This document shows positions 31,089 to 48,427 of a DNA stretch of 64,000 nt, in pieces (the stretch's first letter is position 1; each line of letters begins with the position of its first letter). The notes under the pieces were generated by a model that ran no database searches, was not told where the DNA came from, and saw only the letters and a program-made list of their open reading frames with translations. The position numbers and the translations under genes were made by a program. Source of the DNA: an uncultured Frankiaceae bacterium (GTDB taxonomy: Bacteria > Actinomycetota > Actinomycetes > BP-191); NCBI GenBank assembly GCA_964651395.1, contig CAZYXZ010000003.1, positions 52,227 to 116,226 of the forward strand, written 5' to 3'.

Positions 31089-33091
31089 GGCTCTCCGACG
31101 GGCGGCAGGTCCCAGGGGTCAAGTGCGGTCGGTGGCGCCGCGCCTACCCCCACGGGCTCCATGGTCGGCGTGTGCCGGCGGGTGTTGCTCAGCGCAATGT
31201 CTCGGAGCGCATCGCTGACGAGTGCTACCGCCCCGCGGTACCACTCCTTCGGCAACCGGCTGGCGTCCAGCAGCGCATCACGAACCAGTTGAGCTCTGAC
31301 GTCGTTCAGCGGCGCCAGCGGCATGCCGTTGTTGCGGTTGGGCACCATGAGCTTGCGACCGTCCATGTCGGTCACCCAGATGCACTCCAAACGCGTGGGG
31401 TCGAAGCGCACCGACAGCGGCCTGGGCTTGAAGTGGTCGTCGCCTTGCGAGTGCCGCTTCAGGTCTTGGATCTCGTCGCAGTCGAAGTCCTCGCCGAGGA
31501 CACGGATGCCCTCATCGTTCGCCACACGCTTGCTGGCAGTAAGCAGGTTGAGCGCGGCAAGTGGGTCTTCGTCAATGGGGATCTCGCCGGCCGTCTCGAG
31601 CTCGATCCAGAACTTCTCTCGCGGTGTCATCTTGAGCGTCTTGTGCCAGGTGTTGTGGTAGATCTCCTCGATGTAGAACATGAATGCCGCCTCGAGGGTG
31701 TGGATGTCGACAGGCGCGAGTTGCTTGCCGCGTCCGCGGTGTTCGGCACGGCGCCCCTTGGACCCAGGCCACGACTGGATGACGCTGCTGAGTCGGCGGA
31801 ATAGCGCTTCGACGATGGCCTTGGCCCACCCGGTGCCGGGTGGAGCGATGTCGATGCTGGAGCCGGCTCGCAAGAGCTGCGCAAGGGCGCGTAGGCCGAC
31901 CATCTGCAGGCCGTTGTCCGTGCCAGTTCGCGAGATTGCGCGCTCGCGTTCCCCAACCTGTTCCAGCACTTCCTCCGTCACCAAGACTAAGGGCGGGACG
32001 CACGGCGCTGTCGCCTCCTCGGTCGGCCACAGGGAGCCCCCTCGTCGCATGTTGAACACGAGCAGGCATACGTCTTCGGCGGAGTACGCCTTCGGTACGA
32101 CGCGCAACGCGAGGACGACCCGTGTGCAGACGTCGATGGCGAGCAGCAGGGCCGCATTGATCAGCTTGCCGTACTGGTCCAGGACGAAGGCGTTGATGTC
32201 CCAGGCGTCAATCTGTACCTGCTCGAAGGGGGCCGCTGCATGGAATCGGTCCTGTGGGCCCCGCTTGCGATCCGCCTTGGACTGCCGGCTCGCGGCAGCC
32301 GCGTTGACACGCTTGCCGCGCAGCATCTCGCGCGTGACAAGGTCGAGCAGGCGACGGGAGTAGTGGACCGGGTCCAGGTCGGTTTCTTCGCGCAGGTAGC
32401 GTCGGAAGTTCTCGTAGTGGACCGCGATGTCCTGGGTGTTCGCCGACGCGACACCCTCGGCCCATGCCCGTCCGGCAGCAACGAGCCGTGGGTCCTTGCC
32501 ATGGAGGGGACCGAAGACGCGCTTCAGCTGCGTCTTGGTGAGAACGGCAGTGATGCTGCCGCCGCTTTTCTTTAGGGCGGCAATGCGCTCGTAGAGCGCC
32601 TTCGGGCGCACGTCGGTGTGGCCCTTTCGGCGCAACTGAACACTGAGTGCCTCGTAGGCCTCCTTGCGGCGCCTCTTCCCCTTCTCGGGCTGCCTCGCGC
32701 CAGGGTCGACGTCGTCCGGGTGCAATGGCTGTTCCGCGGCGATGTCGCCGTGCGGATCGCCGGTGATGAATTTGGTGAGTTCCTCGCGGAGGCCCTTTGC
32801 CATCTTCTGTTCGTGGTCCGTCAACCTGTCGAGGATCTCGTCTTCGAAGATGCGGGGACGGTTCTCCTCAGCATCTGATGGCCCCAGCGGTCCTAGTGCC
32901 TCCTCCGCAAAGTCGGCCAGGCTGAGGATGAATTCGTCACCGTGTGGATCGGTGCATACCGCGCCGACCGAGAAGGCTGTTAGCAGTTCTTTGGGCTGGC
33001 GCTCGAATCGCTTGAACGTCCAAATGCCCCCGACGCCGTGCCAAGTGTGCTCGCGCATGACCATGTAGTGGGGCAGTCGGCGGGTGCTCAC
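31085..33091 (-). CDS. tnsB: TnsB/TniA-type Mu-like DDE transposase (rve integrase core)
   Basis: DDE triad context: QVQIDAWDINAFVLD, TDNGLQM and YHNTWHKTLKMTPREKF. Size is 668 aa. Confidence 0.85.
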   Translation of the reverse strand: MSTRRLPHYMVMREHTWHGVGGIWTFKRFERQPKELLTAFSVGAVCTDPHGDEFILSLADFAEEALGPLGPSDAEENRPRIFEDEILDRLTDHEQKMAKGLREELTKFITGDPHGDIAAEQPLHPDDVDPGARQPEKGKRRRKEAYEALSVQLRRKGHTDVRPKALYERIAALKKSGGSITAVLTKTQLKRVFGPLHGKDPRLVAAGRAWAEGVASANTQDIAVHYENFRRYLREETDLDPVHYSRRLLDLVTREMLRGKRVNAAAASRQSKADRKRGPQDRFHAAAPFEQVQIDAWDINAFVLDQYGKLINAALLLAIDVCTRVVLALRVVPKAYSAEDVCLLVFNMRRGGSLWPTEEATAPCVPPLVLVTEEVLEQVGERERAISRTGTDNGLQMVGLRALAQLLRAGSSIDIAPPGTGWAKAIVEALFRRLSSVIQSWPGSKGRRAEHRGRGKQLAPVDIHTLEAAFMFYIEEIYHNTWHKTLKMTPREKFWIELETAGEIPIDEDPLAALNLLTASKRVANDEGIRVLGEDFDCDEIQDLKRHSQGDDHFKPRPLSVRFDPTRLECIWVTDMDGRKLMVPNRNNGMPLAPLNDVRAQLVRDALLDASRLPKEWYRGAVALVSDALRDIALSNTRRHTPTMEPVGVGAAPPTALDPWDLPPVGEP

Positions 33092-34149
33092 GACGTTCGC
33101 CCGAACACAGCCCTACCTACGCCGGCGTTCAACCGCGCCCGCAGCCCCTGACCCTCTGAGACGCGGCGAGTCATGTCCACCAGATCCGCGATTTCTGGTC
33201 GCGTCATGATGTCCGGCCGTTGCTCGAAGGCAGGCTCCCTCGTGATCCAGGTGGGGCCGATGATCGGCGGGCCGAGCGGAAGGTGCAGACGGCCGTTCTG
33301 AATCAGGTGCTCGGTCGCGTGGAGCGGAGCGACAGGCCCTCTGAAGGTGGTGCGGATTCGCTGCATCGAGCACCCGTTCGCCGGCAGCCACTCCTCGATC
33401 CGTTCGGCGAGGGCGACATAGCGCCTGGGGGGATCCGCCCACTGGTCGAGGGCTCGCAGGTTGAAAGCACGCTGTGCCGTCATGGGGTGGCGGACCTCGT
33501 ACGTCCAGCCCACGGACTCTGCGAAGCGTGCCGTCAGCTCCCACTGCAGCAGCACGTCGAGCGGCGGCCGCTCGTAACTGGTGACGTCGAGCAGAACCCT
33601 CTCGCCGGCGTCGGTGAACACCAGCAGATCCGGGTCGTGCCGCAGGTCCAGGCTGCCGTGCCGCCAAGACAGCCGGACCATCTGGGTCACGAGTGCTCGG
33701 TCGGGCCTGCCGCGGAGCGCATCCCACATGTGCTCGAGCTCGTTCTGGCTCGCGCCGGCGACATGGAACGGCACCCGCCGCTTGATCAACTGGAACCTGA
33801 TCTGATTCGTGCGGCCCTTGTAGTTCGCGGCTCGGCGGACCTCAGCCAACCGAAGTGGATCGATGGCCGCGAACTCCGAGGGAGTGAGCCGCGTCTGCTT
33901 GCCTTCGTGCTGGTCCGTGGCGTCGAGCAGTGCCAGACAGGAGCAGCTTTCGGCCAGCGAGTCCAGCGTCGCGTCATCGACCAGAGCGTCGAAAACGGCC
34001 CGCACACGCTCATCCCGCCCGATCTGCAGGCGGGGGATGTCGTCGACGACGTAGACGCTGCGGGTGCGGCGTCGCTGCGGCCGCGGCTGCCTGCGCGTGG
34101 TCGCTGACTCCGTCACGCGGGAGAGCAGGACGCGCACAGGCACCGACAT
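33088..34149 (-). CDS. tnsA: TnsA-like endonuclease subunit (putative)
   Basis: First gene of the ATGA-coupled operon. It has restriction-endonuclease-like motifs (NELEHMW ... DPDLLVFTDAGERVLLDVT) resembling the TnsA E...D...K region, but the canonical Lys position is not evident. Confidence 0.5.
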   Translation of the reverse strand: MSVPVRVLLSRVTESATTRRQPRPQRRRTRSVYVVDDIPRLQIGRDERVRAVFDALVDDATLDSLAESCSCLALLDATDQHEGKQTRLTPSEFAAIDPLRLAEVRRAANYKGRTNQIRFQLIKRRVPFHVAGASQNELEHMWDALRGRPDRALVTQMVRLSWRHGSLDLRHDPDLLVFTDAGERVLLDVTSYERPPLDVLLQWELTARFAESVGWTYEVRHPMTAQRAFNLRALDQWADPPRRYVALAERIEEWLPANGCSMQRIRTTFRGPVAPLHATEHLIQNGRLHLPLGPPIIGPTWITREPAFEQRPDIMTRPEIADLVDMTRRVSEGQGLRARLNAGVGRAVFGRTS

Positions 34150-34823
34150 GGCGCGTCGGGCGGCTCGCTTCCTATGGGTTCGAGCGTCCAGGCGTCCAGG
34201 ACAACTGCCGCGGGGACCCTGCAGGGCTCGACGTCGGGCGCTCCTGGACGATCACTGCGCTGGTGGCCCGGCGTTGCTCTCTCGGCGCAGTCTGTGGACA
34301 AGGATGCGGGCGATGGCAGACTTCGCATAGCGGTACTCCCAGGACTCGGCTTGCTGGCTGACGTTTGAGGGGCGACCGCGAGTAGGGCCCGCGACGGCGG
34401 CAACTGTCGCGGGCCTTACGCATTGCTCTCGGCACATGTGGGCCGTCCTCGAACGAACTCGGCGCGCTGGCTGACTCAAGGCTTCAGCAACACGCCCCGT
34501 GGCGACGGCAACCGCCCACGGTGACGTTGACAGCCCACAGAACTCGGCCATCACGCTGCCACCAGACCTCTTGGCGCGGGAGCGTATTGCCGTCCGCCTC
34601 ATTACGCCAGTCCAACGTGGCCGATTTTTGCAACGCCAGGTGCGTCTCACGTCTCCGGAATTGTGCCTACAGTCCGGGAAGTGCTGCTGGGTGACAGCAC
34701 ATCTGTGCCGAATTTCGCGCGCATTTAGCGGTGCGCATGGACTGATATCGCTTTCTTGCCAAGGGATCTGACACGTAGCCTGGCAACTGCTTCCGGTGAC
34801 CTGTCAACGCTAGACTCGCCGCC

Positions 34824-35150
34824 ATGGGGCGCCAACGACCGCACGCAGCCGTCCCGCCGTGGGCGACCAGGGTGATCGGCGGAACCACGTTCTTGGCTCG
34901 ACCATGCGCCAATCCGGGTTGCCGGCGACCAGTCTTTTGGGACGGCGGACGGGGTCGGCCGAGCGAGTACTGCTCCCCTCAGGGCAACCCGATCGGCAAC
35001 TGTCGACTGGAACGACTGCGCCGGCGACGCGAGGTAACCGCCCGCATCGCCCACGTTCGACGGCAACTGAGCGAGGCTCGAAGTGGGACTGACCGCGACG
35101 AACTCGAGTCCGGTCTGCGCCAGCTGGAGTGGTTGCGCGGTGCGCTGTAG
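34824..35150 (+). CDS. Small Cys-containing (Zn-ribbon-like) hypothetical protein
   Basis: 108 aa, CANPGC...YCS...NC followed by a basic coiled region. It lies between tnsA and hsdM. An overlapping minus ORF 34725..35357 is equally possible, and both are uncertain. Confidence 0.25.
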   Translation: MGRQRPHAAVPPWATRVIGGTTFLARPCANPGCRRPVFWDGGRGRPSEYCSPQGNPIGNCRLERLRRRREVTARIAHVRRQLSEARSGTDRDELESGLRQLEWLRGAL

Positions 35151-35322
35151 CCGCAGAAGGCGGCCGCGCAGTCGTGAGAGCCGGTTCGGTAAGTCCAGGT
35201 GCGGAGGCGACTGCTGAGACCAGGCTCGCGCGGGCTGTCCGAGCGGCACCAGTACGGGCCACTCGTCCTTTCCGCAGAGCGGGCAGACTCCACTAGTACC
35301 CGCGACGACCAGGGGCCGCTCG

Positions 35323-36885
35323 ATGACCAAGCACAAGACCCGCGAAACGGTGGACATCTACAACATCGCCGATCGCCTATGGGCGACCGCCGACGAGCTA
35401 CGCGCCAACTCCCACCTGAAGGCCGCCGAGTACTCCGTGCCGGTTCTCGGCCTGATCTTTCTCAAGTTCGCCGACAGCAGGTTCGCCCAGGCCGAAGCCG
35501 AGTTGGCAGGGAGCAGCACCGGTCGTCGCGAGATCGGCAAGGCCAACTACCAAGCCAAGAGCGTCCTCTACCTGCCTGATGGGGCCCGGTTCGCCAACCT
35601 GCTCAACCTCAAAGAGGGCGACAACCTCGGCAAGGCGATCAACGACGCCATGTCGGCCATCGAGGCGGAGAACCCGTCGCTGAAAGGCGTCTTGCCACGG
35701 ACCTACCAAGCGCTGACCAACGACACATTGGTAAGCCTGCTTCGCTCCGTGAACTCCATCCTCGGCGACATCGAAGGCGACGCCTTCGGCAAGGTCTACG
35801 AGTACTTCCTCGGCAAGTTCGCAGTGGTCGAAGGTTCAAAGGGAGGCGAGTACTTCACGCCTACCCCGATCGTTCGCCTGATCGTCGAGATCATCGAACC
35901 GTTCAACGGCAAGATCCTCGACCCAGCATGTGGGTCAGGCGGCATGTTCGTTCAGAGCGCCCGCTTCGTGGAGGAACACCGCAACGGCAAGTCCGGTCGG
36001 CTCTCGATCTACGGCCAGGAGCGAGTGAACGAGACCATCCGGCTGTGCAAGATGAACCTCGCCGTGCATGGGCTTGAAGGCCAAGTGCGCCAGGCCAACA
36101 CTTACTACGACGATCCCTTCAAGTCTGTTGGTCAGTTCGACTACGTGATGGCTAACCCGCCCTTCAACGTCAACAAGATCGACAAGACCAAGCTTGAGGG
36201 CGACAAGCGATTCCGGCTCGGAGTGCCGAAGGCCGACAACGGCAACTACATCTGGATCCAGACCTTCTACTCGGCGCTGAACGAGAAGGGCCGCGCTGGG
36301 TTCGTCATGGCCAATTCAGCCGCTGATGCAGGCGGGAGCGAGTTGGCAATTCGCCAAAGGATGCTGGCGGAGAAGGCAGTGGATGTCGTTGTCTCGGTTG
36401 GACCGAACTTCTTCTACAGCGTGACGTTGCCGGTCACGCTGTGGTTCCTGGACCGGGGCAAGGCCACCGACGAGCGCGCGGAGAAAGTGCTGTTCATTGA
36501 CGCGCGCAGAGTCTTCCGCCAGATCGATCGTGCGCATCGCGACTGGACCCCCGACCAGATTGAGTTCTTGGCAAACATCGCCCGCATGTACCGAGGCGAG
36601 GAGCCAGAGTTGGTCCACGGATCAGCCTTGCTGTCTTCAGCGTTTCCGGACGGGAAGTACACCGACGTTCCGGGGCTTTGCGCAGTTGCGACCATTGAGC
36701 AGATCCAAGAGCAGGGTTGGAGCCTCAATCCCGGCCGCTATGTAGGCGTCGCAGAGGCGAAGCACGACGGAGTCGACTTCAAGACACGCTTGGCTGAGCT
36801 GACCAAAGAGTTGGACGAGCTGACCACCGAAGCTGCACAGCTCCAGTCAAGGATCGCAGCCAACGCCGCAGAGCTGCTGCGTTGA
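35323..36885 (+). CDS. hsdM: Type I restriction-modification system DNA methyltransferase subunit
   Basis: HsdM N-terminal domain ([34 protein letters not shown]), AdoMet motif [10 protein letters not shown] and catalytic NPPFN. Confidence 0.9.
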
Positions 36886-38117
36886 ACACGTCGTGGCCGG
36901 CGGTCCGACTCGCCAACGTGTGCGATCGGATCACGGTGGGTTGGGTTGGCCCGATGGTCGACCAGTATGTGGACGCCGGAGTTCCCTTCCTGCGGTCGCA
37001 AAACATCACGCCGTTCCGCATTGCCACAGAGAACATCAAGTTCATCACGCCGGAATTCCACGAGCGCATCCGCAAGTCAGCGCTTCGCCCCGGAGACGTC
37101 GCAGTTGTCCGCACGGGTTACCCCGGCACAGCCGCGGTAGTGCCTGCGTCACTAGGCGAGGCCAACTGCGCCGACCTCGTCGTGATCACCCCTGGCCCGC
37201 AGCTCGACTCGCGGTTCCTCGCAGCAATCTTCAACTCGTCCTGGGGGGTTGCCTCTGTCGGAGGCAATCTCGTTGGCTCTGCTCAGCAGCACTTCAATGT
37301 CGGGGCAGCCAAACACATGGAAGTGCGACTTCCCCCGATAACGATCCAGCAGAAGATCGCTGGTGTCCTCACGGCCTACGACGCCCTCATCGACAACAAC
37401 ATGCGTCGGATCAAGCTCTTCGAGGAGTTGGCGCAGCGCATCTACCGTGAATGGTTCGTTGAGTTTCGCTATCCCGAGCACCGAACGGTTCCGCTCGTCG
37501 ACACGGAACTTGGCTGTGCGCCGCAAGGCTGGTCGGTAGAGCCATTGTTCGCAGTAGCTGACGTTGCCTTCGGGTTTGCATTCAAGTCCACGGGATTCAA
37601 CGAAGAGCACGGAACGCCGGTGGTGCGAATCCGTGACATCCCTAATGGAGAGAGCCGGACGCTAACCACGGAGGACCCCGGTGATCAATATCGCATCAGG
37701 GACGGCGACATCCTCATCGGCATGGACGGCGACTTCCACATGGGCCGATGGTCAGCTGGTGAGGCGTGGCTCAACCAGCGGGTCACACGCGTTCGGCCAG
37801 CGACTCCGGGCCTCTCGACGTACTCCCTCTACATGGCCCTCGAGGATCCCATCGCAAGGTGGAACGAAGCAATCGTGGGAACGACGGTTGCTCACTTGGG
37901 CAAGCGCCACCTCGAGAGAATCAGCATCCTGATCCCGCCTGCACCGTTGCGAGAGGCAACGTCACGCCTGCTTGATCCCATCCTTTCCATGGAGATCACT
38001 CTTCGGAAAGCCAACCGCCAACTCCGAGCCAGCCGCGATCTCTTGCTGCCGCGCCTGATCGCAGGTGACCTCGAATTGGCAAAGCTCACTATCGACGTCG
38101 ACACGGATGCCTCGTGA
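36882..38117 (+). CDS. hsdS: Type I restriction-modification system specificity subunit
   Basis: Two target-recognition domains separated by conserved coiled repeats. It overlaps hsdM by 4 nt. Confidence 0.85.
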
Positions 38118-41100
38118 CTCCGTCAGGGCGGTACACCGAGGACCAACTCGTGGAGCAACCCGCCATCCAGCTGTTCGAGTCGCTGGGTTGGGAGGCGGTT
38201 AACGCGTACCACGAGACGCTTGGGCCGAACGGCACGTTAGGGAGGGACAACAAGTCTGAAGTCTTTCTGACGCGGCGCCTCCGCGCGGCGATAGAGCGAT
38301 TGAACCCAATGGCGCCGAGCGAGGCCGTGGAGCAGGCCGTCGCGGAACTCACCAAGGCTCGCACGGTCATGCACTACGCGAGGGCCAATGCAGAGATCCA
38401 TGGGTTGCTACGTGACCGTGTTGAGGTCTCCGTCCGACAGCCAGACGGGACCACCTTGCCCGAGCGGCTCATCGTCATCGACTGGGACAACCCCGAGAAC
38501 AACGACTTCCTGCTGGTCTCTCAGCTCTGGGTTCACTCGGACCTGTACCGCCGTCGAACGGATCTCGTCGGCTACGTCAACGGGATCCCGCTTGTTTTCA
38601 TCGAGTTAAAGGCGTCGCATCGCAGCCTCAAGCACGCATACGACGACAACCTTCGCGACTACCGCGACGCCATCCCAGAGCTATTCACTCCGAACGGGTT
38701 CATCGTCCTGTCCAACGGAGCAGACACGAAGGTCGGATCGATCACCGCCGGCTGGGAGTTCTTCTCCGAGTGGAAGAAGATCGACTCCGAAGGTGAACAG
38801 GGCTCGGTCTCGCTCGAGACCGTCATCCGGGGCATGTGCACCAAGGATCGCCTGCTCGACATCGTGGAGAACTTCATCGCCTACCAGGACCTGCCCGGTG
38901 GCTTCGTCAAGATCCTTGCCCGCAACCACCAGTACCTCGGCGTCAACAACGCCATGGCCCGCCTGGAGGAGCTCCGGCACGCAACGCCCGAGGAGCGCGG
39001 CAAACTCGGCGTCTTCTGGCACACCCAAGGCTCCGGCAAGACCATCTCGATGTTGTTCTTCTCGCAGAAGGTGCTACGCAAGCTCCCCGGCAACTGGTCG
39101 TTCGTCATCGTCACCGACCGCGACGACCTCGATGAGCAGGCCTATAAAGAGTTCTCCTACGCTGGGGCAATCGCCGAAAAGCACATGCGTGCAACGAGTT
39201 CCGAGCACCTTCGACAGCTGCTCGGCGAAGACCACCGCTACGTCTTCACGCTGATACACAAGTTCCGCACCGACAAGGGCGAGACACACCCGGTCATCTC
39301 AGACCGCGACGACGTCATCGTGATCACGGACGAAGCTCATCGCACTCAGTACGACACCCTGGCGCTCAACATGCGCAATGCGCTTCCGAATGCGAGCTTC
39401 CTCGGGTTCACCGGCACCCCGCTCATCGCGGGCGAGGAGCGGACGCGAGAGGTCTTCGGCGACTACGTCTCTGTCTACAACTTCGCCGCGTCCGCGGCTG
39501 ACAAGGCGACCGTCCCGTTGTACTTCGAGAACCGCATTCCCCAAGTCGCGATCGAGAACCCAAACTTCGCAGACGACCTCATGGCCATCGTCGAGGAGGC
39601 GGATCTCGATGACGACCAGGAGCGCAAGCTCGGCCGCCTCCTGGGCCAGCAATACGAGCTGATCACCCGGGATGACCGACTAGATGCCGTCGCTGGGGAC
39701 ATCGTCGACCACTTCCTCGGCCGGGGTTTCCCCGGCAAGGCTCTCGTCGTTTCCATCGACAAGATCACCGCGGTACGAACCTACGAGAAAGTGCAACGGT
39801 TCTGGGCAGAACGGTTGGAGCACAGCAAGCAGGCCATCGCGGGCGGAGGTCTCACGGAGGACGAACACGACCGGCTCGTCCGCGAGATCGTCTTCATGCG
39901 CAACACCGACATGGCTGTGGTCATCTCGCAGTCGCAGAACGAGATCTCGGATATGGCGGCGCGGGGGCTCGATATCAAGCCTCACCGCAAGCGCATGGTG
40001 GAAGAAAGCCTGGAAGACAGGTTCAAGGACGCGCAGGACCCGCTGCGAATAGCGTTCGTCTGCTCCATGTGGACCACGGGTTTTGACGTGCCATCTCTGT
40101 CCACCGTGTACCTGGACAAGCCGTTGCGCAACCACACGCTGATGCAGACGATCACACGCGCCAACCGGGTGTTCCCCGAGAAGAACAACGGACTGATCGT
40201 CGCCTACGTGGATGTGTTCAGCAACCTTCAGAAGGCTCTCGCCATCTACGCGATCGGGGGTAAGCCCGGCGATGTTCCCGTCGAGGAGAAGGGAGCCCTG
40301 GTCGACGCGCTGAGCGAGGCTGTCGGCGATCTCCGCGCATTCTGCGCCGCACGGGAGGTCGACCTCGACGCACTTGCCGGCCTAACAGGCTTCGAGTTGG
40401 TCGCGGAAGGCAAGCGAACCGTCGAACTGTTGATGGTCGACGACGACGAGAAGATCGCATTCCTCTCTCGCACCGCCCTCGTTGACCGGCTCTACAAGGC
40501 CATCCTGCCGGACACCCGCGCGAATCAGTTCAGCCGGCTTCGCGCAGTCTCCAAGTTCCTCGCCGACGGCATCGCTGCGTACACCGAGCGCCCGGACGTC
40601 GGCAGCGTCCTAGGGAGAATTCAGCAGCTCCTCGATGAGTCCGTCGCCGCTCAGGAGTACGTGATCCCACGGACCGACGCCGAGGCGTTGTTCGATCTCG
40701 GAGCTGTTGACTGGACGGGCCTTCAAGACGCCTTCAAGCAAGGCCGGCCCCGCACGGCGGCGCAACGGCTTCGCACCCTGCTCGCCGCCAGGATCACCGC
40801 TCTCGTTCGGCTCAACCCATCACGAGTAGACCTCGTCGAACGCTTCGAGAAGCTGGTCGCCAACTACAACGCCGGCAGCATCAACACCGAGACGTTCTTC
40901 CAAGAGCTACTGAGCTTCAGCGCATCGCTTTCCACCGAAGAGGCACGGGCGTTGTCCGAGAACCTCAACGAAGAGCAGCTCGCCATCTTCGACCTGCTCA
41001 TGCGCCCAGCACCCGACCTATCTGACGAGGAGCACGCGCAAGTGAAGCGCGTCGCCGAGGAACTGCTTGCAGTCCTGAAGCGCGACAAGATCGTGCTCGA

Positions 41101-41278
41101 CTGGCGCAAGGAGCAAGCAACCCGCGCCGCGGTGAGAGTCGCGGTCGAGGAAACCCTCGACCGGTTGCCGGAGAAGTTCACCCGGCAGCTCTACGCACAG
41201 AAGTGCGACGCGGTCTATCAGCATGTCTTCGACAGCTACTGGGACGACGGACACTCGATATACGAGCACGTCGCCTAG
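38114..41278 (+). CDS. hsdR: Type I restriction enzyme endonuclease/helicase subunit
   Basis: 1054 aa with an N-terminal PD-(D/E)xK region, the SF2 helicase motifs GSGKT and ITDEAHRTQ, and a C-terminal domain. It overlaps hsdS by 4 nt. Confidence 0.9.
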   Translation: MTPSGRYTEDQLVEQPAIQLFESLGWEAVNAYHETLGPNGTLGRDNKSEVFLTRRLRAAIERLNPMAPSEAVEQAVAELTKARTVMHYARANAEIHGLLRDRVEVSVRQPDGTTLPERLIVIDWDNPENNDFLLVSQLWVHSDLYRRRTDLVGYVNGIPLVFIELKASHRSLKHAYDDNLRDYRDAIPELFTPNGFIVLSNGADTKVGSITAGWEFFSEWKKIDSEGEQGSVSLETVIRGMCTKDRLLDIVENFIAYQDLPGGFVKILARNHQYLGVNNAMARLEELRHATPEERGKLGVFWHTQGSGKTISMLFFSQKVLRKLPGNWSFVIVTDRDDLDEQAYKEFSYAGAIAEKHMRATSSEHLRQLLGEDHRYVFTLIHKFRTDKGETHPVISDRDDVIVITDEAHRTQYDTLALNMRNALPNASFLGFTGTPLIAGEERTREVFGDYVSVYNFAASAADKATVPLYFENRIPQVAIENPNFADDLMAIVEEADLDDDQERKLGRLLGQQYELITRDDRLDAVAGDIVDHFLGRGFPGKALVVSIDKITAVRTYEKVQRFWAERLEHSKQAIAGGGLTEDEHDRLVREIVFMRNTDMAVVISQSQNEISDMAARGLDIKPHRKRMVEESLEDRFKDAQDPLRIAFVCSMWTTGFDVPSLSTVYLDKPLRNHTLMQTITRANRVFPEKNNGLIVAYVDVFSNLQKALAIYAIGGKPGDVPVEEKGALVDALSEAVGDLRAFCAAREVDLDALAGLTGFELVAEGKRTVELLMVDDDEKIAFLSRTALVDRLYKAILPDTRANQFSRLRAVSKFLADGIAAYTERPDVGSVLGRIQQLLDESVAAQEYVIPRTDAEALFDLGAVDWTGLQDAFKQGRPRTAAQRLRTLLAARITALVRLNPSRVDLVERFEKLVANYNAGSINTETFFQELLSFSASLSTEEARALSENLNEEQLAIFDLLMRPAPDLSDEEHAQVKRVAEELLAVLKRDKIVLDWRKEQATRAAVRVAVEETLDRLPEKFTRQLYAQKCDAVYQHVFDSYWDDGHSIYEHVA

Positions 41279-41399
41279 GGCGCAAACTGTCGTTGTCGAG
41301 CATCTGCTCGCCGCTACCTTCGCGCACTCGGCACCTGACGCCGCCCGTGGAGGACGATACGTGGCGCGATCTGCGATGAGAGGCATTGAGGATCTGCTC

Positions 41400-41858
41400 A
41401 TGACACGAGTGCTAGGCATCAACGTCGCGGGTTCGACGGCCTATCTCGCGCTCTGCGACGACGCGGAGATCACGAACGACAAGCCGGAGAAACTCGTCGC
41501 ACCCGATGGGCTGGCGGCTGACAGTGGCACGCTCGCATTTCTCGACGACATCGGCCGTGTGCTTGGTCAGCTCCGGGTTGAACGCGTTCGCGTCCTGGAC
41601 CCCGAGCCGACTTATTCGACCAGCGTCCAGAGTGTCGTCCCGAGGATCACGATCGAGACCCTGTTCCTGCTAGCCGCGTGGCAGCGAGGCCTCGACGCCG
41701 GCCGCATCAGTCGCGCCCGTATCCGGTCGCTGCTCGACCTGGGCCGATCGGGCTCGCTCAGCTCCTTGGCCGCGAGCGTGACCAAGCCCGTAGGCTCCTC
41801 GTGGACCGGCAAGCGCGATCTGGCGGCGCTGGCAGCGCTCGCCGGCGGGCGGGAGTGA
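41400..41858 (+). CDS. Hypothetical protein coupled to the Ser/Thr kinase (N-terminus faintly RNase-H/YqgF-like)
   Basis: GAGGA RBS and ATG 41400. The protein reads MTRVLGINVAGSTAYLALCDD.... Its stop is 2 nt before the kinase ATG, inside the kinase RBS (GGGAGTGAccATG). Confidence 0.45.
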   Translation: MTRVLGINVAGSTAYLALCDDAEITNDKPEKLVAPDGLAADSGTLAFLDDIGRVLGQLRVERVRVLDPEPTYSTSVQSVVPRITIETLFLLAAWQRGLDAGRISRARIRSLLDLGRSGSLSSLAASVTKPVGSSWTGKRDLAALAALAGGRE

Positions 41859-41860
41859 CC

Positions 41861-42967
41861 ATGGTGCTGCACGGCGAACGACTGGACCGGCCCACCTACA
41901 ACTTCCTGACGACCATCAACGAGGGCAACACTGGGATGGCGTACCTGGGCGTGCATGAGGTGTACGACCGCAAAGTCGTCCAAAAGGTCATCTCGCTGCT
42001 CGGGGTCGAGGACGCGATCGCGTTCAACGAGCCCCGCATGCTGAACGAGATGCGCCACCCACATCTCGTAGAGGTCTGGGAGGCCCAATGGGACCCGGAC
42101 AACAAGGCAGTCAAGGCGATCACATTCACCATGCCGTTCTACGAGGGCGGCAGCGTCAACCAGCAGCTCGCGACCGGCAGCCGGTTCAGCCTCGCCGAGG
42201 CGGTCAGCGTCACGCGCGGCACGCTCTCCGCGTTGCACTACCTCCACGTCGAGCGCGCCGTGCTGCACCGCGATATCAAGCCCGGCAACATCTTCCTCTC
42301 CGCAGACCGTCGTCACCCCTACCTCGGCGATCTGGGCAGCGCCGTCACCATGACCCCAGCCAGGGATGCAGAAGCGCGAAGCGGTACTCCGCTTTACCGC
42401 CCCCCGGAGAACCACCTCGGGCGGTACACCGTGCGCGGGGAGCTCTACGGACTCGGTATGACCCTGCGGGAGATGCTCCACGGGCCATACCCCTACGCCG
42501 ACTTCGACGACGCCACGATTGCCACTCGCCTGGACGCCGGCCGACGAGCCATCCCCGATCGCTTCTACGAGATCACGGCGCCGCAGGTTCCGGATGCACT
42601 AGCTCGACTCGCCCGCAGTCTCACCCATGCCGATCCGGCGCGACGGCCGGCGTCCGCCGCAGACGCTCTCAGGCGACTCGACAGCATCCGTTATCTGACG
42701 TGGCACGTCGTCCATGAGGACGCCGACAGGGTCGTGTGGGATGCCACGTGGTCTAACCAGCCCGCCAACCGGGCGAGGGTCTATCGCATTGAACTGACGC
42801 AGATTCGGCGCGGCCGCTACGCGGGACTCGTTCGTGCAGAGGCCCGCTGGCGCCCACCGGGCACCGCCGCCTGGCGTGGCATACGCGCCTTGGATGCCCG
42901 GCTTCGCTCGGACGATCGGGCGGCGCTACGGGGCGTCTTTTCAGCGGTCGAGCAAGCCGCGAGGTAA
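41861..42967 (+). CDS. Ser/Thr protein kinase (Hanks-type) with ~100-aa C-terminal extension
   Basis: Motifs: VVQKV (beta-3 Lys), catalytic loop HRDIKPGNIFL, LGDLGSA, GTPLYRPPE. Confidence 0.75.
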   Translation: MVLHGERLDRPTYNFLTTINEGNTGMAYLGVHEVYDRKVVQKVISLLGVEDAIAFNEPRMLNEMRHPHLVEVWEAQWDPDNKAVKAITFTMPFYEGGSVNQQLATGSRFSLAEAVSVTRGTLSALHYLHVERAVLHRDIKPGNIFLSADRRHPYLGDLGSAVTMTPARDAEARSGTPLYRPPENHLGRYTVRGELYGLGMTLREMLHGPYPYADFDDATIATRLDAGRRAIPDRFYEITAPQVPDALARLARSLTHADPARRPASAADALRRLDSIRYLTWHVVHEDADRVVWDATWSNQPANRARVYRIELTQIRRGRYAGLVRAEARWRPPGTAAWRGIRALDARLRSDDRAALRGVFSAVEQAAR

Positions 42968-43350
42968 CCGCTCACTTCGTCCACTGCTTGAACAACCGTC
43001 GGGTCCAGCCGTAGCACCGCACGCCTCGCCGCCGTCCGCGCACCCGCCGCAATTGCATACCCTGCAGTCAAGCCCGGGGCTTCCGTGACGAGCGAGCCCT
43101 CGGCCGCGAGCTCCCACAACGCGGGAGTAACCCCTCGAGCCCGACGCCCAACCTCGGCGTCCGGCTCGATCCGCAGCACTGGTAACCGAGCGTGAGACCA
43201 CGCCGCCCGGAACGCGTCGTCGCTGGCCACCCGGTCCATCAGCGTGCTGAGTCCGCGATGCAGCGGTGTGTGGTCGCGCGCGTCTAGCCAGCAGTCGTCG
43301 GCTGCTGCGAAGATCAGACGAAGCAGAAATGTCAGACCTGTATCAGACAT
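42817..43350 (-). CDS. Hypothetical protein
   Basis: ATG 43350 sits in an AT-rich divergent promoter region. The ~135-aa protein-like N-terminus is MSDTGLTFLLRLIFAAADDCWLDARDHTPLHRGL.... The C-terminal low-complexity tail overlaps the kinase 3' end by ~150 nt. Confidence 0.3.
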   Translation of the reverse strand: MSDTGLTFLLRLIFAAADDCWLDARDHTPLHRGLSTLMDRVASDDAFRAAWSHARLPVLRIEPDAEVGRRARGVTPALWELAAEGSLVTEAPGLTAGYAIAAGARTAARRAVLRLDPTVVQAVDEVSGYLAACSTAEKTPRSAARSSERSRASKARMPRQAAVPGGRQRASARTSPA

Positions 43351-43372
43351 ATGTTTATCGTAGGAGGCCGGT

Positions 43373-43702
43373 GTGACATCGGGAGTCGACGACACGTTGG
43401 ATCCCGGAGAACTCCTCTGCACATCACGCGACCGCCAGGTCGGGCTGCGGGTTCCTGTCGCCGTCAGCCAGCGCGTCGATGCACTCCTCGCCCGGGCCCG
43501 AGCGGCGGGCGAGCGGACGGACCGCAAGGAACTGATCACGGCCTTGTTGGCGGAGACAGATCTCTCCGGCGACCAACTGGGCGACTTGCTGCGGCGGTAT
43601 CGACGCATGACTGTCGCGCACGCCCTTCTGGACCAGAGCGCTGATGGCTCCGTTGTGAGACTCGCGCGAGCTCGGCCCGGGCCGCGCCCGCGTGCCTCCT
43701 GA
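43373..43702 (+). CDS. Small hypothetical protein (possible DNA-binding/regulatory)
   Basis: GTG start 7 nt after a TAGGAGG RBS; 109 aa, charged and helical (RKELITALLAETDLSGDQLGDLLRRYRR). Confidence 0.4.
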   Translation: MTSGVDDTLDPGELLCTSRDRQVGLRVPVAVSQRVDALLARARAAGERTDRKELITALLAETDLSGDQLGDLLRRYRRMTVAHALLDQSADGSVVRLARARPGPRPRAS

Positions 43703-43912
43703 CGCAGTAGCGGGGATGGCCCGTCATCACCGCAAGACTCAGCACGGCCATGACGAGTACTCCGGCCCAGTAGAGCCACGCGTTGCGTCCGCCGCGCTGA
43801 GGCGGATCGCTTGTGGCTCGATGCCCCGCCCATCGACAGGAACCCCGCTCACGGCGTCACCTTTCCACGAACGCGTCGGCGCGACATTGCGCGACAGCCC
43901 GGATCGACAGCG

Positions 43913-45085
43913 TCACGGAAGGCTCCAAAGCGGTTCGTAAGGTCCGGTCTTTCCCAACCAGTTCATCAATCGGAGAGGACCAACCGCGTTAGCCCACCAG
44001 CCGATGGCGACTGCCAGCTCAACTGGGGTCGCCAAGTACAGGTCTATGCAGTCGATGTCGTTCCGGTCCGAGAGCTCCGTCAGGGTGCTGCCAATCTGTG
44101 CAGCCCAAGCCGCGCAAGTGTTTGCGTCTTGAACTGCCGTTCTCGCGGTCCCTTTCGGGGGCTTGAGCGTGAGCCGTTCACGGTATTTGTCGCCGGCCCG
44201 CACCCGTGCAGTGATCCCGGCGTCGACGTCGCGACTCACTGCGACCCCCAACGCCGCCGCTCGGGCATCGATCGGACCGGCCGGGAAGGCTTCCCGCACA
44301 AGAGGCTCGACGGCATCGGGCCTACGGATCGTGTGGAACTCCTCCTCTCCCCGTGGCATGCGAATGGTGTAGCCGGTTGGTTCGGCGAACGCGTACCCAA
44401 TGGCTGCAGCAATGGGCAGGTGCGACTTGATGGCCAGTTGGAGGGTCGACGGCCCGTATCGGGCCTTCAGCAATCCGGCCACAGTTGCGAGGGCTTCCTT
44501 CAGATCCGCACGCGTGGCTTCGTCGATCGCACCTGAGCTGAATCGATGGCGCCAATCGACACTGAGGACAGCGGTGTCTCGCATGTCTGCCGTGTCGTCG
44601 TAGGTGACGAGGCGCATCGACGCCGGCAGGTTCTCGCTGTAGGCCCGCGCAATGAGTGCCTCTGCCACACGCGCTGCGACGGCGCGCGCCGTCACAGTCG
44701 GATCAGAGCCTGGCTGAACGACGTGGCCGTTCTGCTCGCCCAGTTCGAATCCTGTCGCCTCGCGCAGGCGATCGCTGCCTTCGCTCGGCGTCATGTCATC
44801 GAACACCGGGATGACGAGCAGGCCGTGGCCGGACCGCGCCGCGGCGATAGCTGGGAGCTCGACAGTCGCGACGTACTCGGACGCCAACAGCCTCGCATCG
44901 ACCCACACAATCGCCGCCCTGCAGGTGGCGAGGTCCGCAAGCACGAACTCGGTCGTCCCTGCTCCTACCGTTAGGCTCTCGACGTCGCGCCATGGCGTGA
45001 CTCCATGTTCAGAGAGTGCCTCGACAAGAAGGCGTCGTTCGTCCCGACTACCCGAGTAGCTGATGAACGTTCGGTTCACGCGCAA
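43913..45085 (-). CDS. TIR-domain effector with C-terminal putative SAVED-like sensor domain (CBASS Cap-type effector)
   Basis: The N-terminus FISYSGSRDERRLLVEALSEHGVTPWRD... is a typical TIR fold with a WxxxE-like segment (SEYVATVEL). The ~250-aa C-terminal domain is putative SAVED. The TTG start overlaps the upstream gene's stop by 10 nt. Confidence 0.65.
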   Translation of the reverse strand: MRVNRTFISYSGSRDERRLLVEALSEHGVTPWRDVESLTVGAGTTEFVLADLATCRAAIVWVDARLLASEYVATVELPAIAAARSGHGLLVIPVFDDMTPSEGSDRLREATGFELGEQNGHVVQPGSDPTVTARAVAARVAEALIARAYSENLPASMRLVTYDDTADMRDTAVLSVDWRHRFSSGAIDEATRADLKEALATVAGLLKARYGPSTLQLAIKSHLPIAAAIGYAFAEPTGYTIRMPRGEEEFHTIRRPDAVEPLVREAFPAGPIDARAAALGVAVSRDVDAGITARVRAGDKYRERLTLKPPKGTARTAVQDANTCAAWAAQIGSTLTELSDRNDIDCIDLYLATPVELAVAIGWWANAVGPLRLMNWLGKTGPYEPLWSLP

Positions 45086-47142
45086 GCCTCCGGGGATGCA
45101 GCGGGCAGGTCGCCGGCCTCGCAGATGTCAGCCGGGATCAGCTGCCCTTCGGTGACTACGTGCCCACGAACGAGTCTTGTGTCCGCGTGCACGATCACAA
45201 GCACCGGTTCGTCGGTGCCCGACTCCTCGGCGAGCGCAAGCATGCTGGCGACGTCGAGGTGGCTCGGACCGCTGGGCTCCGGGCCTGTGTGGGAGTGCCA
45301 CTCACCGAGATAGCCCAGACGCTCGTCCGCGTCGTGAAACGGTTCCACGGTGCGCGGAACGCTGTGCGCGGCGATCCTGAAGCTCTGGGGAGCAGCACCG
45401 GGATCGGAGACCTCGACTGCGGCTGTCACAACTGGTCTGGCATCGATGAGCGCGCCGACAAGGACCCCGCCGGTCTCGTTGGGCGCAGCGGCACTGGCCG
45501 CGGACCGCATACTCGCCAGCGCGCTCTCCACCACGTCGATCGTCCTCGTCATGTCCGTCCGACGCAGGCGCCCCACTCTGTGGAACGGGACGGGTCCCGA
45601 ACGAAGTACCTCGATCACCTCGTCGGGCTGCTCATTGCGGCCGACAAGGAAGTCGACGACCACCTCGGAAGCTAGTGCGGCTGCATGCACGACTGCGATC
45701 GGAGGCGAGTTGTGGACCAGCGCTAGGCAACCCGTCTCCGAGCCGACGTATTCGACCTCCTCCTCTAACGGGGTGATTTCGGGATACGCGTCGAGGTGCG
45801 GGCGCCGGATGAACAGAGTGTCCGAAGGCAGCGCTTGTCGGCGTACTCGCGCAACGGTCCCTCCCCGAAACAGCGCGGCCGAGACCAACGGCCTCTGCTG
45901 GGCGGCCGCGACCTGTCCGGCCAGCTGAGACAGACCCACGAAACCGGTCGCTTCGACAGTCACATCGACGTCCGCGAGCAGTTCGCGCAGCCCGTCAATC
46001 GACCACTTGATGCCGTAGTCGTCCTCCGCTGGTACTTCGACGCGGACCCACGGGTATTGCTCCAGGTCCGCCTGCAGGGCGTGGGTCTTCAACGTCGCCG
46101 CGGGAGTGCCCGGCGCGGCAGCATGGCGGATCAGGTTGGCTGGCCAGAGCCGGTCCGAGTCCACAAGGCGCAGCGTGCCCACGCCGGCACGGGCGAGGAG
46201 CTCGGCGACGTGCGACCCGACGGCACCGACGCCGAGGATCGCGACCCGTTTCCCCTGCAGTGTCGCCGCGTCGGGTCCGGCCCGCAGCAGCAGCTCGTCC
46301 GGGCCGTTTGGCCGTAGCGCTACGAGGGCGGTTTCCCGCGCGCCGTCAGCGCCGCGGACCGAGAGAAGCATCGTCGCCACGAGCCCGGCGTTGTTGCGCC
46401 AGATGAGGCCGAACATGACGACAGCGCGATCGCGAAGGTCCTTGTCGAGTCGTTCGCGTTGCCGATCGGTCAGCAGTGACCGGAACTCATCGAGGTTGCG
46501 TGGTGGCCCTGAGACGTTTTCGCGCAAGAACCATCGGCCGCGGACCTGGCCGTAGTTCACTCCGCCGGGCAGCGGGCTGCCCGCTGTGTACGCGCCCGGG
46601 CGCAGGTCGTAGACAGCTCCTGGACTGGGGCGCCCGTCCGCCGATACCGCATCCGCGAACTGGAACTCACCGTGCTGACCATCGGCGGTCTCGCCGGACA
46701 GCAGCCCCTCCAGATCGACGAGTCCGGCAACCATCGGCATCGGCTGCTGCCAGTAGATCTCGGGGTTGCGCGCATTCTCCGAACGAGCAAATCCGAGATC
46801 AGCGTCCTCGACCCACTCTGCGATCCGCGCACTCAACCCGTCGAGAGTGGTCCACCGTTGGCTCGCATCCTCCGCCTGCCAGATGCACAGGCGTTCTTGG
46901 TCGGCGTGCCAGTTTGAGATCCCCGGGACGATGAGCAGTGGCGGAAGGTATGGCCACGAGACCCTCAGACGGATGCCCATGCGCTCCGCGGTCGTGTACC
47001 CAGCGGAGATAAGGGCGGGATCCGTGGGGCCCGTCCAGGTCCAATCGTCTTCGCGTACGTAGCCGGCCCGCTCGAGTTCACCGATGAAGGATCGGAGGCT
47101 GTCGGGGTCTGCAGCGGAGTCGAACGGCGGGTCAGCGACCAC
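45076..47142 (-). CDS. E2-like / E1 (ThiF/MoeB Rossmann) / JAB (JAMM) deubiquitinase-like fusion protein (Cap2+Cap3-type CBASS accessory)
   Basis: The N-terminus is E2-like (WHADQERLCIW, candidate catalytic Cys). The middle is a ThiF Rossmann domain (RVAILGVGAVGSHVAELLARAGVGTLRLVDSDRL). The C-terminus carries JAMM-type GEWHSHTGPEPSGPSHLD. The GTG start at 47142 overlaps the CD-NTase stop. The longer ORF N-terminal extension (to 47562) is low-complexity and is rejected. Confidence 0.7.
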   Translation of the reverse strand: MVADPPFDSAADPDSLRSFIGELERAGYVREDDWTWTGPTDPALISAGYTTAERMGIRLRVSWPYLPPLLIVPGISNWHADQERLCIWQAEDASQRWTTLDGLSARIAEWVEDADLGFARSENARNPEIYWQQPMPMVAGLVDLEGLLSGETADGQHGEFQFADAVSADGRPSPGAVYDLRPGAYTAGSPLPGGVNYGQVRGRWFLRENVSGPPRNLDEFRSLLTDRQRERLDKDLRDRAVVMFGLIWRNNAGLVATMLLSVRGADGARETALVALRPNGPDELLLRAGPDAATLQGKRVAILGVGAVGSHVAELLARAGVGTLRLVDSDRLWPANLIRHAAAPGTPAATLKTHALQADLEQYPWVRVEVPAEDDYGIKWSIDGLRELLADVDVTVEATGFVGLSQLAGQVAAAQQRPLVSAALFRGGTVARVRRQALPSDTLFIRRPHLDAYPEITPLEEEVEYVGSETGCLALVHNSPPIAVVHAAALASEVVVDFLVGRNEQPDEVIEVLRSGPVPFHRVGRLRRTDMTRTIDVVESALASMRSAASAAAPNETGGVLVGALIDARPVVTAAVEVSDPGAAPQSFRIAAHSVPRTVEPFHDADERLGYLGEWHSHTGPEPSGPSHLDVASMLALAEESGTDEPVLVIVHADTRLVRGHVVTEGQLIPADICEAGDLPAASPEACA

Positions 47143-48256
47143 CGAATCCTCGCTCTGCGCTCCCGCCCACGGCCAGATTGGCCGCTGCGGCGCCCATCGT
47201 GGCGCCCGTGCCACGGCAACCAGGCGGGAGTGGGAAGACCTGCGTGTCCCGGCCGTTGCCTCCGAAGACCGCACGCCATTCATGTGCCGCCTGGCATTGC
47301 GAGTCCGCGGTGACGGCGCTCCTCGCTCGTCTTGCCAGCATCGCGAATGTCTCCGCAGCGACTTGCGATTCGGCTTGCGTTGGCGCCGGCTGGTAGGGCA
47401 CGTCGAGAACTGGGTCGCGGATCGGCTCGCTCGAAGCCAGGCGGGACGCCAAGAACACCAACGCAGACTCTGCGATATCAGCCCAGCTCGCTCCAACGAT
47501 CGCACCCGTTCGGAAACCCTCGTGTAGAGCCATCTCGTAGTAGAGCGCGCCTGGCTTTGCATCGGGCAAGTGCGCGGACTTGATCTGCCGGACCATCCTC
47601 ACGACGCGAACGAATCCACCGATGCCGTCGATCTGCGGATCCCGGTTGCGCTCGTGAGTGAGGTCCGTGAGTGCAACTGGGTTGGTGAGACGCCAACGTC
47701 CGCTGCGCGCCACTACATCTGTTCGGGGATCGCGCTGCACCTCGGGGATTCCGTAGTGCTTCCCCCACTTGACCGCAGGCACGACGTCCACCGAGAACTC
47801 GAACGCCAGCTCCGGTAGCCGCTGAATCACCGACTCCGCGCGGGTTGCCTCCCATTCGTAGACCTGTGCCGCGCTTCTCAGTGATGCCACGCTCGGCGTT
47901 CGAGTGCGACTGAAGGCGATCTTGAACGACCGCGGTTGCCTTGTGAGTCGTGATTGCGCAGCGAACGGGTCCAAGGCTCGGCCGAACATCTCGTAGGTTT
48001 CGTCGGCAGTGATCGACTCCGTGTTCTCTGAGGACAGCCGCCCGAAGACGTCGACATCCTTGCCCGGCCACGTGGATACCTTGCGCCCGTAGCTGCCGAT
48101 GAGGACGTCTTCCAGGCCGTGCCCGAGCAGCTCGGTGCTGGATCGCAGGACCTGCCGCACCTCTTGATGCGCCGCGATCGCGATCAGGGCTCTGTCCCCC
48201 AGCCGGATCCGCTGCTGCATGACCGTGAATTGAGGGTTCAGCTCGAACCTCGCCAT
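47132..48256 (-). CDS. cGAS/DncV-like nucleotidyltransferase (CD-NTase, SMODS family)
   Basis: Polymerase-beta-type motif IGSYGRKVSTWPGKDVDVFGRL (GS...DxD). Start is placed at ATG 48256 (MARFELNPQF...). Confidence 0.75.
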   Translation of the reverse strand: MARFELNPQFTVMQQRIRLGDRALIAIAAHQEVRQVLRSSTELLGHGLEDVLIGSYGRKVSTWPGKDVDVFGRLSSENTESITADETYEMFGRALDPFAAQSRLTRQPRSFKIAFSRTRTPSVASLRSAAQVYEWEATRAESVIQRLPELAFEFSVDVVPAVKWGKHYGIPEVQRDPRTDVVARSGRWRLTNPVALTDLTHERNRDPQIDGIGGFVRVVRMVRQIKSAHLPDAKPGALYYEMALHEGFRTGAIVGASWADIAESALVFLASRLASSEPIRDPVLDVPYQPAPTQAESQVAAETFAMLARRARSAVTADSQCQAAHEWRAVFGGNGRDTQVFPLPPGCRGTGATMGAAAANLAVGGSAERGFGGR

Positions 48257-48427
48257 CTGCGGTCCAATCGATGCGCTGTCGTGGGGTCTACACGGCCCTT
48301 GCGGTCCCATCAGAGATATCACTCGGGTGTGACAACTTGGCCCGGTGTGGGGCATGCCTGTGGACGACCGGGGACAACGGATGGCTAGGGGTCGGACTCC
48401 GCTTCCGCACGGTCATGGTGATCAGGT

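Follow-up and report, generated by a model that had tools for sequence, protein, structure and literature searches.

Within a stretch of 64,000 nucleotides from an uncultured Frankiaceae bacterium (GenBank assembly GCA_964651395.1, contig CAZYXZ010000003.1; hereafter the window), a gene for a Hanks-type Ser/Thr kinase (gene B) directly follows a gene for a small protein with a RuvC fold (gene A), and the two are accompanied by a convergent gene (C) and a further small gene (D). Together these form a self-contained cassette of three to four genes, at 41400-43702, in which A, B and C are the core and D is a frequent fourth member. The original prediction for this DNA had recognised a two-gene unit of kinase and small partner; the pairing itself stands and recurs in other genomes, whilst C and D had been missed. 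The cassette is laid out as follows, in window coordinates:

41400..41858, plus strand: gene A, a 152-aa RuvC-fold protein, predicted to be catalytically inactive (pseudo-RuvC)
41850..41863, plus strand: the A-B junction, with a GGGAG Shine-Dalgarno sequence, the A stop TGA at 41856-41858 and the B ATG at 41861
41861..42967, plus strand: gene B, a 368-aa Hanks-type Ser/Thr kinase
41897-42685 (~aa 13-275 of B), plus strand: the kinase domain
42686-42964 (aa ~276-368 of B), plus strand: the family-specific C-terminal domain
42817..43350, minus strand: gene C, a 177-aa conserved protein, convergent with A-B
42817..42967: the convergent 3'-end overlap of B and C, 151 nt
43357..43362, minus strand: TACGAT, a -10-like box (TAnnnT), at -12 to -7 relative to the start of C
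43373..43702, plus strand: gene D, a 109-aa small protein, divergent from C

Read directly from the window sequence, the TGA stop codon of A lies within GGGAGTGACCATG, embedded in the ribosome-binding site of the kinase gene just as first described, and A itself has a GAGGA Shine-Dalgarno sequence 7 nt upstream of its ATG. Other parts of the first description also held when we returned to them: translation recovers the HRDIKPGN, DLG and PPE motifs of the kinase, its C-terminal ~100 residues do resist assignment, and the genes do lie between a type I restriction-modification (R-M) system, with HsdM, HsdS and HsdR upstream, and a cyclic oligonucleotide-based antiphage signalling system (CBASS) downstream.

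The coupling of A and B extends well beyond the window. Loci were sampled from both sides of the pair, ten through homologues of the kinase and six or more independently through homologues of A, and in 16 of 16 other loci A stands immediately before B, so that the co-occurrence check once proposed for the pair comes out in its favour from either gene. Measured in 11 loci, the distance from the A stop to the B start always falls between -17 and +3 nt, a non-random arrangement consistent with translational coupling, and even the most distant relative of A that we examined (E 1e-15) is still followed by a kinase, C and D. All of these loci are high in GC (59-70%), and those that carry a name all belong to Actinomycetota.

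Pfam, NCBIfam, PHROGs and PADLOC offer nothing that matches gene A, but an exhaustive profile search places it in a family of 269 representatives at 50% clustering, practically all of them stand-alone proteins of ~150 aa. Structure prediction, which had been suggested for this 152-aa partner, gave a high-scoring AlphaFold2 model from a 52-sequence alignment (predicted local distance difference test, pLDDT, 96.1; predicted template modelling score, pTM, 0.91) with the topology β1-β2-β3-α1-β4-α2-β5-α3-α4-α5. Its best Foldseek matches in the PDB are bacterial RuvC structures, from Thermus, Deinococcus, Pseudomonas and E. coli, aligned over the full length with TM-scores of 0.70-0.75 and E-values down to 1.5e-8, and phage RuvC resolvases head the structural matches in a viral library. 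The family profile also finds the sequence of Deinococcus radiodurans RuvC over residues 1-111 (E 4e-4). By model, structural search and profile alike, A has the RNase H-like fold of RuvC.

What A does not share with RuvC is the acidic tetrad (D7, E66, D138 and D141 in E. coli), which is not conserved. The first catalytic Asp, part of a GID motif in RuvC, is Asn in the window protein (GIN, position 8), and among the 52 aligned sequences this position is mostly occupied by Asn (24), His (9), Ser (8) or Ala (6), 47 in all, with Asp outside the four commonest residues. D140 is kept in just 23 of the 52; W135, R139 and A142 are invariant, and our alignment of the ALA motif, made by reasoning, would put the invariant Arg and Ala where the RuvC C-terminal helix has two Asp. 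Acidic residues are conserved at E69 (42/52) and E86 (51/52), of which E69 is plausibly the sole tetrad residue that the family has retained. A is probably a pseudo-nuclease: because the D7N variant of E. coli RuvC binds junctions without cleaving them, we read A as a protein of this kind that may retain dimerisation and junction binding, and would be expected to bind junctions rather than cut them. It also diverges fast, since a tblastn search with A missed even the known plasmid copy described below. The 52-sequence alignment was too diverse for locus scanning, and a 6-sequence alignment was used on metagenomes.

Gene B, on the other side of the junction, matches the Pfam family Pkinase (PF00069) over aa 13-264 (E 5e-33; 115 bits against a cut-off of 31.7) and has Foldseek kinase-domain matches at probability 1.00, which together make it a Hanks-type kinase. 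It carries LHRDIKPGN at aa 135-143, DLG at 157-159 and PPE at 181-183, and K42, E57, H136, R137, D138, K140, N143, D157, G159 and E183 are invariant in 22 members of its family; the Gly-rich loop is degenerate (EGNTGMAY). With the full set of catalytic residues intact, the enzyme is apparently active. It has no PASTA or other extra Pfam domain and no transmembrane segment. Behind the kinase domain, the last ~95-100 residues have no match in Pfam or, by profile search, among PDB sequences. In the AlphaFold2 model of B (pLDDT 87, pTM 0.86), which consists of the kinase domain and a tail, residues 279-367 form five β-strands and a terminal helix, and W281, G322, W338 and R339 in this C-terminal region are likewise invariant in the 22 members. 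Foldseek searches with B return eukaryotic kinases of the CaMK/AMPK group, amongst which full-length AMPK-α chains rank first. A kinship of the tail with the AMPK-α C-terminal or KA1-like domain was considered and set aside as a lead rather than a result, the alignments having a root-mean-square deviation of ~21 Å and bringing no gain in TM-score.

The kinase family is small and sharply bounded. Among 5.8 billion proteins we found ~64 full-length relatives of 357-379 aa, 40-52% identical to B, with E-values of 1e-116 to 1e-66; below 1e-66 the next kinases are generic ones at 1e-21. Named members all come from Actinomycetota (Micromonospora, Pseudonocardia, Amycolatopsis, Janibacter, Actinomadura and Mycobacteroides abscessus). 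Clusters at 90% identity nearly all hold one to four sequences from few contigs each, and the distribution of the family is patchy. Set against models of characterised kinases, B reaches E 1e-39 with PADLOC mad6 and 3.7e-34 with the best PD-T4-6 model, and amongst NCBIfam models 2.7e-25 with MAD6 as opposed to 2e-19 with PknB, so that by these scores its kinase domain would be somewhat nearer the defence kinase models than the housekeeping one. One metagenomic copy (L097, 368-2917) is interrupted: an insertion of ~1 kb, which could be an intein, an IS element or an artefact of assembly, splits the kinase gene, and positions 2-233, 228-272 and 277-373 of the hidden Markov model (HMM) fall in three open reading frames (ORFs).

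Gene C is easily overlooked, and annotation pipelines usually fail to call it. The ORF list of the window holds a 338-aa ORF on the minus strand (42817-43833) that overlaps the 3' end of the kinase gene; comparison across loci by BLAST and HMM shows that only its C-terminal 177 codons are conserved, from an ATG at 43350. Wherever the sequence extends far enough downstream (13 of 13 loci), homologues lie at the same place and point the same way; they encode proteins of ~140-180 aa and share the invariant residues D23, H31, D64, V67, R70, G73, T75, A77 and W79. The copy on a Curtobacterium plasmid, which is unannotated, matches an HMM built without that copy at E 9e-39. Could this conservation be borrowed from the kinase gene on the other strand? 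The C homology lies mostly outside the part that overlaps the kinase, and is therefore not an echo of kinase conservation. Moreover, the C frame is the sole one of six that is open in all eight loci tested; the coding strand was settled by this counting of stop codons across loci, GC3 analysis being uninformative in the lower-GC genes of the island. Searches with the protein in Pfam, NCBIfam, PHROGs, PADLOC and the PDB sequences gave no match.

The overlap of B and C is itself a constant feature, at 49-157 nt in all 11 loci measured. We found no terminator-like hairpin within 41200-43950 and none between the two genes, nor any Rfam family or match to a terminator or promoter consensus in the cassette region. 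Because B and C overlap convergently, with no terminator-like hairpin between them, their transcripts should be complementary at the 3' ends. Upstream of C, every one of 10 loci has a TAnnnT hexamer whose distance from the start codon is constant, at -12 to -7. This is the arrangement expected for an actinobacterial leaderless transcript, and TACGAT in the window is the predicted promoter of such a transcript. More speculatively, the invariant Thr75 of C, with its Arg-rich surroundings, is a candidate phospho-site.

Gene D is separated from C by 22 nt, on the opposite strand, and has an AGGAGG box ahead of it (43362-43367). Homologues are present in 7 of 13 loci, namely L084, L089, L091, L097, L099 and L100, plus a frameshifted copy in L088. 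This last copy, from Actinomadura sp. KC06 (L088 11487-11901), runs across two frames, owing to either a frameshift or a sequencing error. D has no match in Pfam, NCBIfam or PHROGs and nothing significant among PDB sequences; a CopG/Arc/MetJ antidote protein, matched below significance (E 0.66), gives the only hint of its fold, and D is possibly a ribbon-helix-helix regulator. Where D is missing, other genes take the fourth position, among them one for an 80-aa MazE/AbrB-like protein in L094, and one for a 203-aa DUF433 protein in L093.

The surroundings of these loci show that the cassette is horizontally mobile among actinobacteria, on transposons, plasmids, integrative elements and chromosomal islands. 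It is found on two actinomycete integrative and conjugative elements (AICEs), in Pseudonocardia and Amycolatopsis, together with RepSA, FtsK/TraB, Xis and Int; on a 108-kb plasmid of Curtobacterium flaccumfaciens; beside Tn7-like tnsB/tniB/tniQ genes in L093, L089 and L100; and, in M. abscessus, in an island downstream of gyrA with three integrases. It appears to be a recurrent first cargo of Tn7-like transposons. Islands downstream of dnaB carry it in both the window and Janibacter, and the region past the 3' end of dnaB appears to be an integration hotspot. A search of 50,697 phage genomes turned up no homologue of any of the three genes A, B and C, and IMG/VR, scanned for A with the 6-sequence alignment, yielded none either.

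Some details of these neighbourhoods may be recorded here. A-B-C(-D) stands beside tnsB/tniB and a gene for a DUF4379 protein in L093 (2172-9134), and beside tniQ in L089 (7504-12022) and L100 (1857-6243). Genes for RES-domain proteins (NAD+ phosphorylase toxins) lie a few kb from the cassette in L089 (1279-2052) and L099 (6590-7213). The stretch 3' of dnaB holds a type I R-M system and then A-B-C both in the window (~17000-48500) and in Janibacter anophelis (L087 1-11800), the R-M systems of the two being unrelated; the two DnaB proteins are ~65% identical, and that of Janibacter has an insertion of ~170 aa.

Does the cassette depend on the R-M system that it follows? In the window and in Janibacter, A does start ~60-120 bp past hsdR, with both genes on one strand. 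Yet identity between the two R-M systems is just 22-26%, compared with 44% for the kinases; the juxtaposition therefore arose independently, and the cassette has no dependence on a particular R-M. Indeed, the majority of loci are without R-M and without CBASS, at least 11 other loci having neither nearby. The cassette is autonomous, and no accessory of R-M or CBASS. The original prediction had left a choice between an independent system and an accessory regulator: the first is borne out, and the second finds no support in loci that mostly lack the systems to be regulated.

In the window, the cassette lies inside a lower-GC island at ~17-48.5 kb (GC 0.60-0.67, against 0.70-0.73 in the flanks), which also holds the CBASS and the Tiamat protein TmtA. 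Upstream of A is a complete type I R-M system, with HsdM at 35323-36885, HsdS at 36882-38117 and HsdR at 38114-41278. The spacer between hsdR and A contains a perfect palindrome, GAGCATCTGCTC, at 41298-41309, which comes back 90 nt on as GAGGATCTGCTC, at 41388-41399, abutting the ATG of A, and which may be a candidate operator. A 210-aa ORF without a PADLOC match (34725-35357, minus strand) overlaps the start of hsdM with its 5' end and lies between hsdM and a Tn7-like transposition module (27194-34149, minus strand), made up of the following genes:

27194-28759 and 28675-30057, minus strand: two TniQ genes
30054-31088, minus strand: a TniB/AAA_22 gene
31085-33091, minus strand: a TnsB-like gene with a Mu-transposase C domain
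33088-34149, minus strand: a 353-aa ORF at the place of TnsA, unmatched in Pfam

The cargo position of this element, directly past the tniQ genes, is taken by a gene for a 1,491-aa protein (22433-26908, minus strand) that matches Tiamat TmtA over its full length (PADLOC PDLC03968, E 0, 1,241 bits). On the other side of the cassette is a type II CBASS, on the minus strand at 43913-48355:

43913-45085, minus strand: TIR-SAVED, the effector
45076-47562, minus strand: an E1/E2-JAB fusion, as an 828-aa ORF
47132-48355, minus strand: the cyclase (CD-NTase)

The E1/E2 and cyclase ORFs as listed overlap by ~430 nt. The true start of the E1/E2-JAB gene is probably internal to the listed ORF, because the PADLOC match begins at residue 152.

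What might such a cassette do? Our predicted function, held with about even confidence, is that of a kinase-based module directed against phages or other mobile genetic elements, acting in defence or abortive infection and behaving much like a toxin-antitoxin system. The defence role is inferred from context, and four considerations lead us to favour it: the place of the cassette as cargo, both on mobile elements and within a defence island that has R-M, CBASS and Tiamat; the patchy distribution; a tight, multilayered control of the kind expected for a dangerous enzyme; and the precedent for toxic defence kinases set by Stk2 and KKP, to which we return below.

If the cassette is indeed a defence module, A and B would be produced in a fixed ratio and form a complex, in which a dimer of the dead RuvC restrains the kinase and serves as its sensor. 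Within the defence reading A is the best candidate for a sensor or regulator, because it would be made stoichiometrically with the kinase and has a fold specialised for DNA junctions. The trigger could be branched or junction DNA that phages generate as they replicate and recombine, or else a phage protein, for example a resolvase of the RuvC type; such resolvases are known from several actinophages, and the pseudo-RuvC dimer might heterodimerise with or bind one. Upon sensing, two kinase molecules would meet and undergo trans-autophosphorylation; dimer-driven trans-activation of this kind would be a reasonable mechanism. Once active, the kinase would halt growth or phage development by phosphorylating proteins of the host or the phage, in the way reported for Stk2 and for the kinases of KKP. 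Gene C, which appears to be transcribed from a leaderless-type promoter of its own and is possibly controlled by D, would set the threshold for A-B: either its convergent transcription would act at the level of RNA, or its protein product would serve as inhibitor or substrate.

At its most specific, this amounts to a dead Holliday-junction resolvase recruited as the sensor of an immune kinase, where branched phage DNA or a phage RuvC switches on the bound kinase and arrests the cell, with transcription of C setting the threshold. We put this forward as a tentative model that is rather unlikely as it stands. Were it true, it would represent a new sensing principle, from DNA junction or resolvase to phospho-signalling, in a defence system restricted to Actinomycetota and the mobile elements of that phylum.

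Several observations speak against the defence function or the part given to A, and deserve to be set out together. Only 2 of ~14 loci adjoin well-established defence systems, and the mobile-element context of the remainder would suit an addiction module or anti-defence cargo just as much. In PADLOC, no defence model matches A or C, and the PADLOC matches of the kinase span only the generic kinase domain, with 116 bits compared with 115 for Pfam Pkinase. The cassette contains no phosphatase. As for the catalytic residues of the RuvC C-terminal helix, these were mapped onto A by our own sequence reasoning, the HMM alignment covering only residues 1-111.

Of the alternatives, the one that survives best is an addiction (toxin-antitoxin) module that stabilises its carrier element, with the kinase as toxin, A and/or C as antitoxin, and phage defence as a side effect. 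It would account for the presence of the cassette on AICEs, a plasmid and Tn7-like transposons, and for a layout, a small gene tightly coupled to the enzyme gene behind it, that is typical of antitoxin and toxin. Antitoxin-like DNA binders at the fourth position (the ribbon-helix-helix-like D, or the MazE-like and DUF433 proteins of L094 and L093) point the same way, and KKP is at once a toxin-antitoxin and a defence system. However, we know of no established class of toxin-antitoxin toxins amongst Hanks-type kinases, the HipA kinases being another family, and the cassette is also kept in chromosomal islands without an obvious element to stabilise. We consider addiction unlikely as the explanation, bearing in mind that it overlaps with defence and does not exclude it.

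A second possibility is that the cassette serves its carriers on entry into a new host, as an anti-defence or establishment factor whose kinase disarms the recipient's defences or recombination and whose RuvC mimic targets the host recombination machinery. The carriers are, after all, conjugative and integrative elements and transposons, and a phage kinase, that of T7, is reported to disarm defences broadly (PMC13645617). This is improbable, though, in view of the absence of A, B and C homologues from the phage genomes searched and of A from IMG/VR, and of a cargo position beside defence genes (R-M, CBASS and RES toxins); the separately regulated, convergent C, with a regulator of its own, speaks for tight control over a dangerous activity more than for a factor that acts early on entry.

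More improbable still is that A is an active, divergent junction resolvase, working on element or host DNA and merely regulated by the kinase: the full-length RuvC fold and the conserved acidic E69 and E86 would suit an active enzyme, but the position of the first catalytic Asp is mostly Asn, His, Ser or Ala, and an invariant Arg and Ala stand where the RuvC C-terminal helix has its two Asp. Finally, a kinase with a housekeeping or signalling role, or one that serves the adjacent type I R-M or CBASS as an accessory regulator, which the close same-strand succession of hsdR and A might suggest, is largely refuted by the context survey and highly improbable, given the loci without R-M or CBASS, the divergence of the two R-M systems relative to the kinases, and a kinase without transmembrane or PASTA segments that falls far under the cut-offs for PknB, MAD6 and PglW (70 bits against 450 for PknB_PASTA, which removes PknB/Stk1 from consideration) and belongs to a ~370-aa family of its own in mobile loci that vary between genomes. 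The second objection foreseen in the original prediction, that B could be a PknB-type housekeeping kinase in conserved loci, is likewise answered.

Returning to the defence reading, why would one more kinase module matter? Kinase-based immunity in bacteria is known from few systems (Stk2, PD-T4-6, KKP, PglW and MAD6), in which the sensing of infection is mostly unclear, and an intact kinase paired with an inactivated DNA-junction enzyme offers a concrete and testable idea for this step. The cassette would also be a candidate system found specifically in Actinomycetota; its carriers include Mycobacteroides abscessus and the plant-pathogenic Curtobacterium, and the defence repertoires of such groups matter for phage therapy and strain engineering.

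How, then, does the cassette compare with what has been described? A full-text search of the open-access corpus (kinase + RuvC-like defence, PD-T4-6, Hanks-type defence kinases, AICE cargo) returned no description of it, which is no proof of novelty. Two known systems with kinases were considered and rejected. The methylation-associated defence system (MADS) supplies the best-scoring defence kinase model and, like the cassette, has a methyltransferase nearby; but with MAD6 (NCBIfam NF047741) B attains 88.9 bits where 460 is the cut-off, in a partial match over aa 132-276, the methyltransferase in the window is an ordinary type I HsdM (MTase_I 6e-209 vs mad2 4e-39), and there are no other mad genes. 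PglW of type 2 BREX (bacteriophage exclusion) fares no better, with 40.7 bits against a cut-off of 990 and no BREX genes in the neighbourhood. The MAD6 and PglW models are 612-659 and ~1,400 positions long, as compared with the 368 aa of B. Gene A resembles RuvC in fold and size over its full length, but occurs outside the ruvABC context and always precedes a kinase.

Closer at first sight is PD-T4-6, a single-gene system from the E. coli pangenome, and automated tools would probably label gene B as such. Both are soluble Hanks-type kinases of ~300-450 aa that occur in accessory regions, and several PD-T4-6 models match B, over aa 12-278 only and with the same score as Pfam Pkinase. In contrast to PD-T4-6, however, B is no single-gene system: A and the convergent C are its obligatory neighbours, it has a C-terminal domain of its own, and it comes from another host phylum.

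The effector logic that we propose for B is that of Stk2, a eukaryote-like Ser/Thr kinase of staphylococci that becomes active during phage infection and phosphorylates core proteins of the host, with death of the cell as the result (PMC6532042). Stk2 differs in acting alone, upon a phage-protein trigger, and no RuvC-like partner or convergent gene has been described for it. KKP of Pf prophages, which combines the kinases PfkA and PfkB with the phosphatase PfpC and works both as a toxin-antitoxin and as an anti-phage system (PMC11341870), is like the cassette multi-gene and borne by mobile elements, and acts through phosphorylation. Its antagonist is a phosphatase, whereas the partners in the cassette are a putatively dead RuvC and two small proteins; and KKP is carried by prophages, whereas no copy of the cassette was found among the 50,697 phage genomes. 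Kinase-based defence is already known; what would be new here is that the kinase is always partnered by a pseudo-RuvC, is overlapped by a convergent gene and carries a C-terminal domain of its own.

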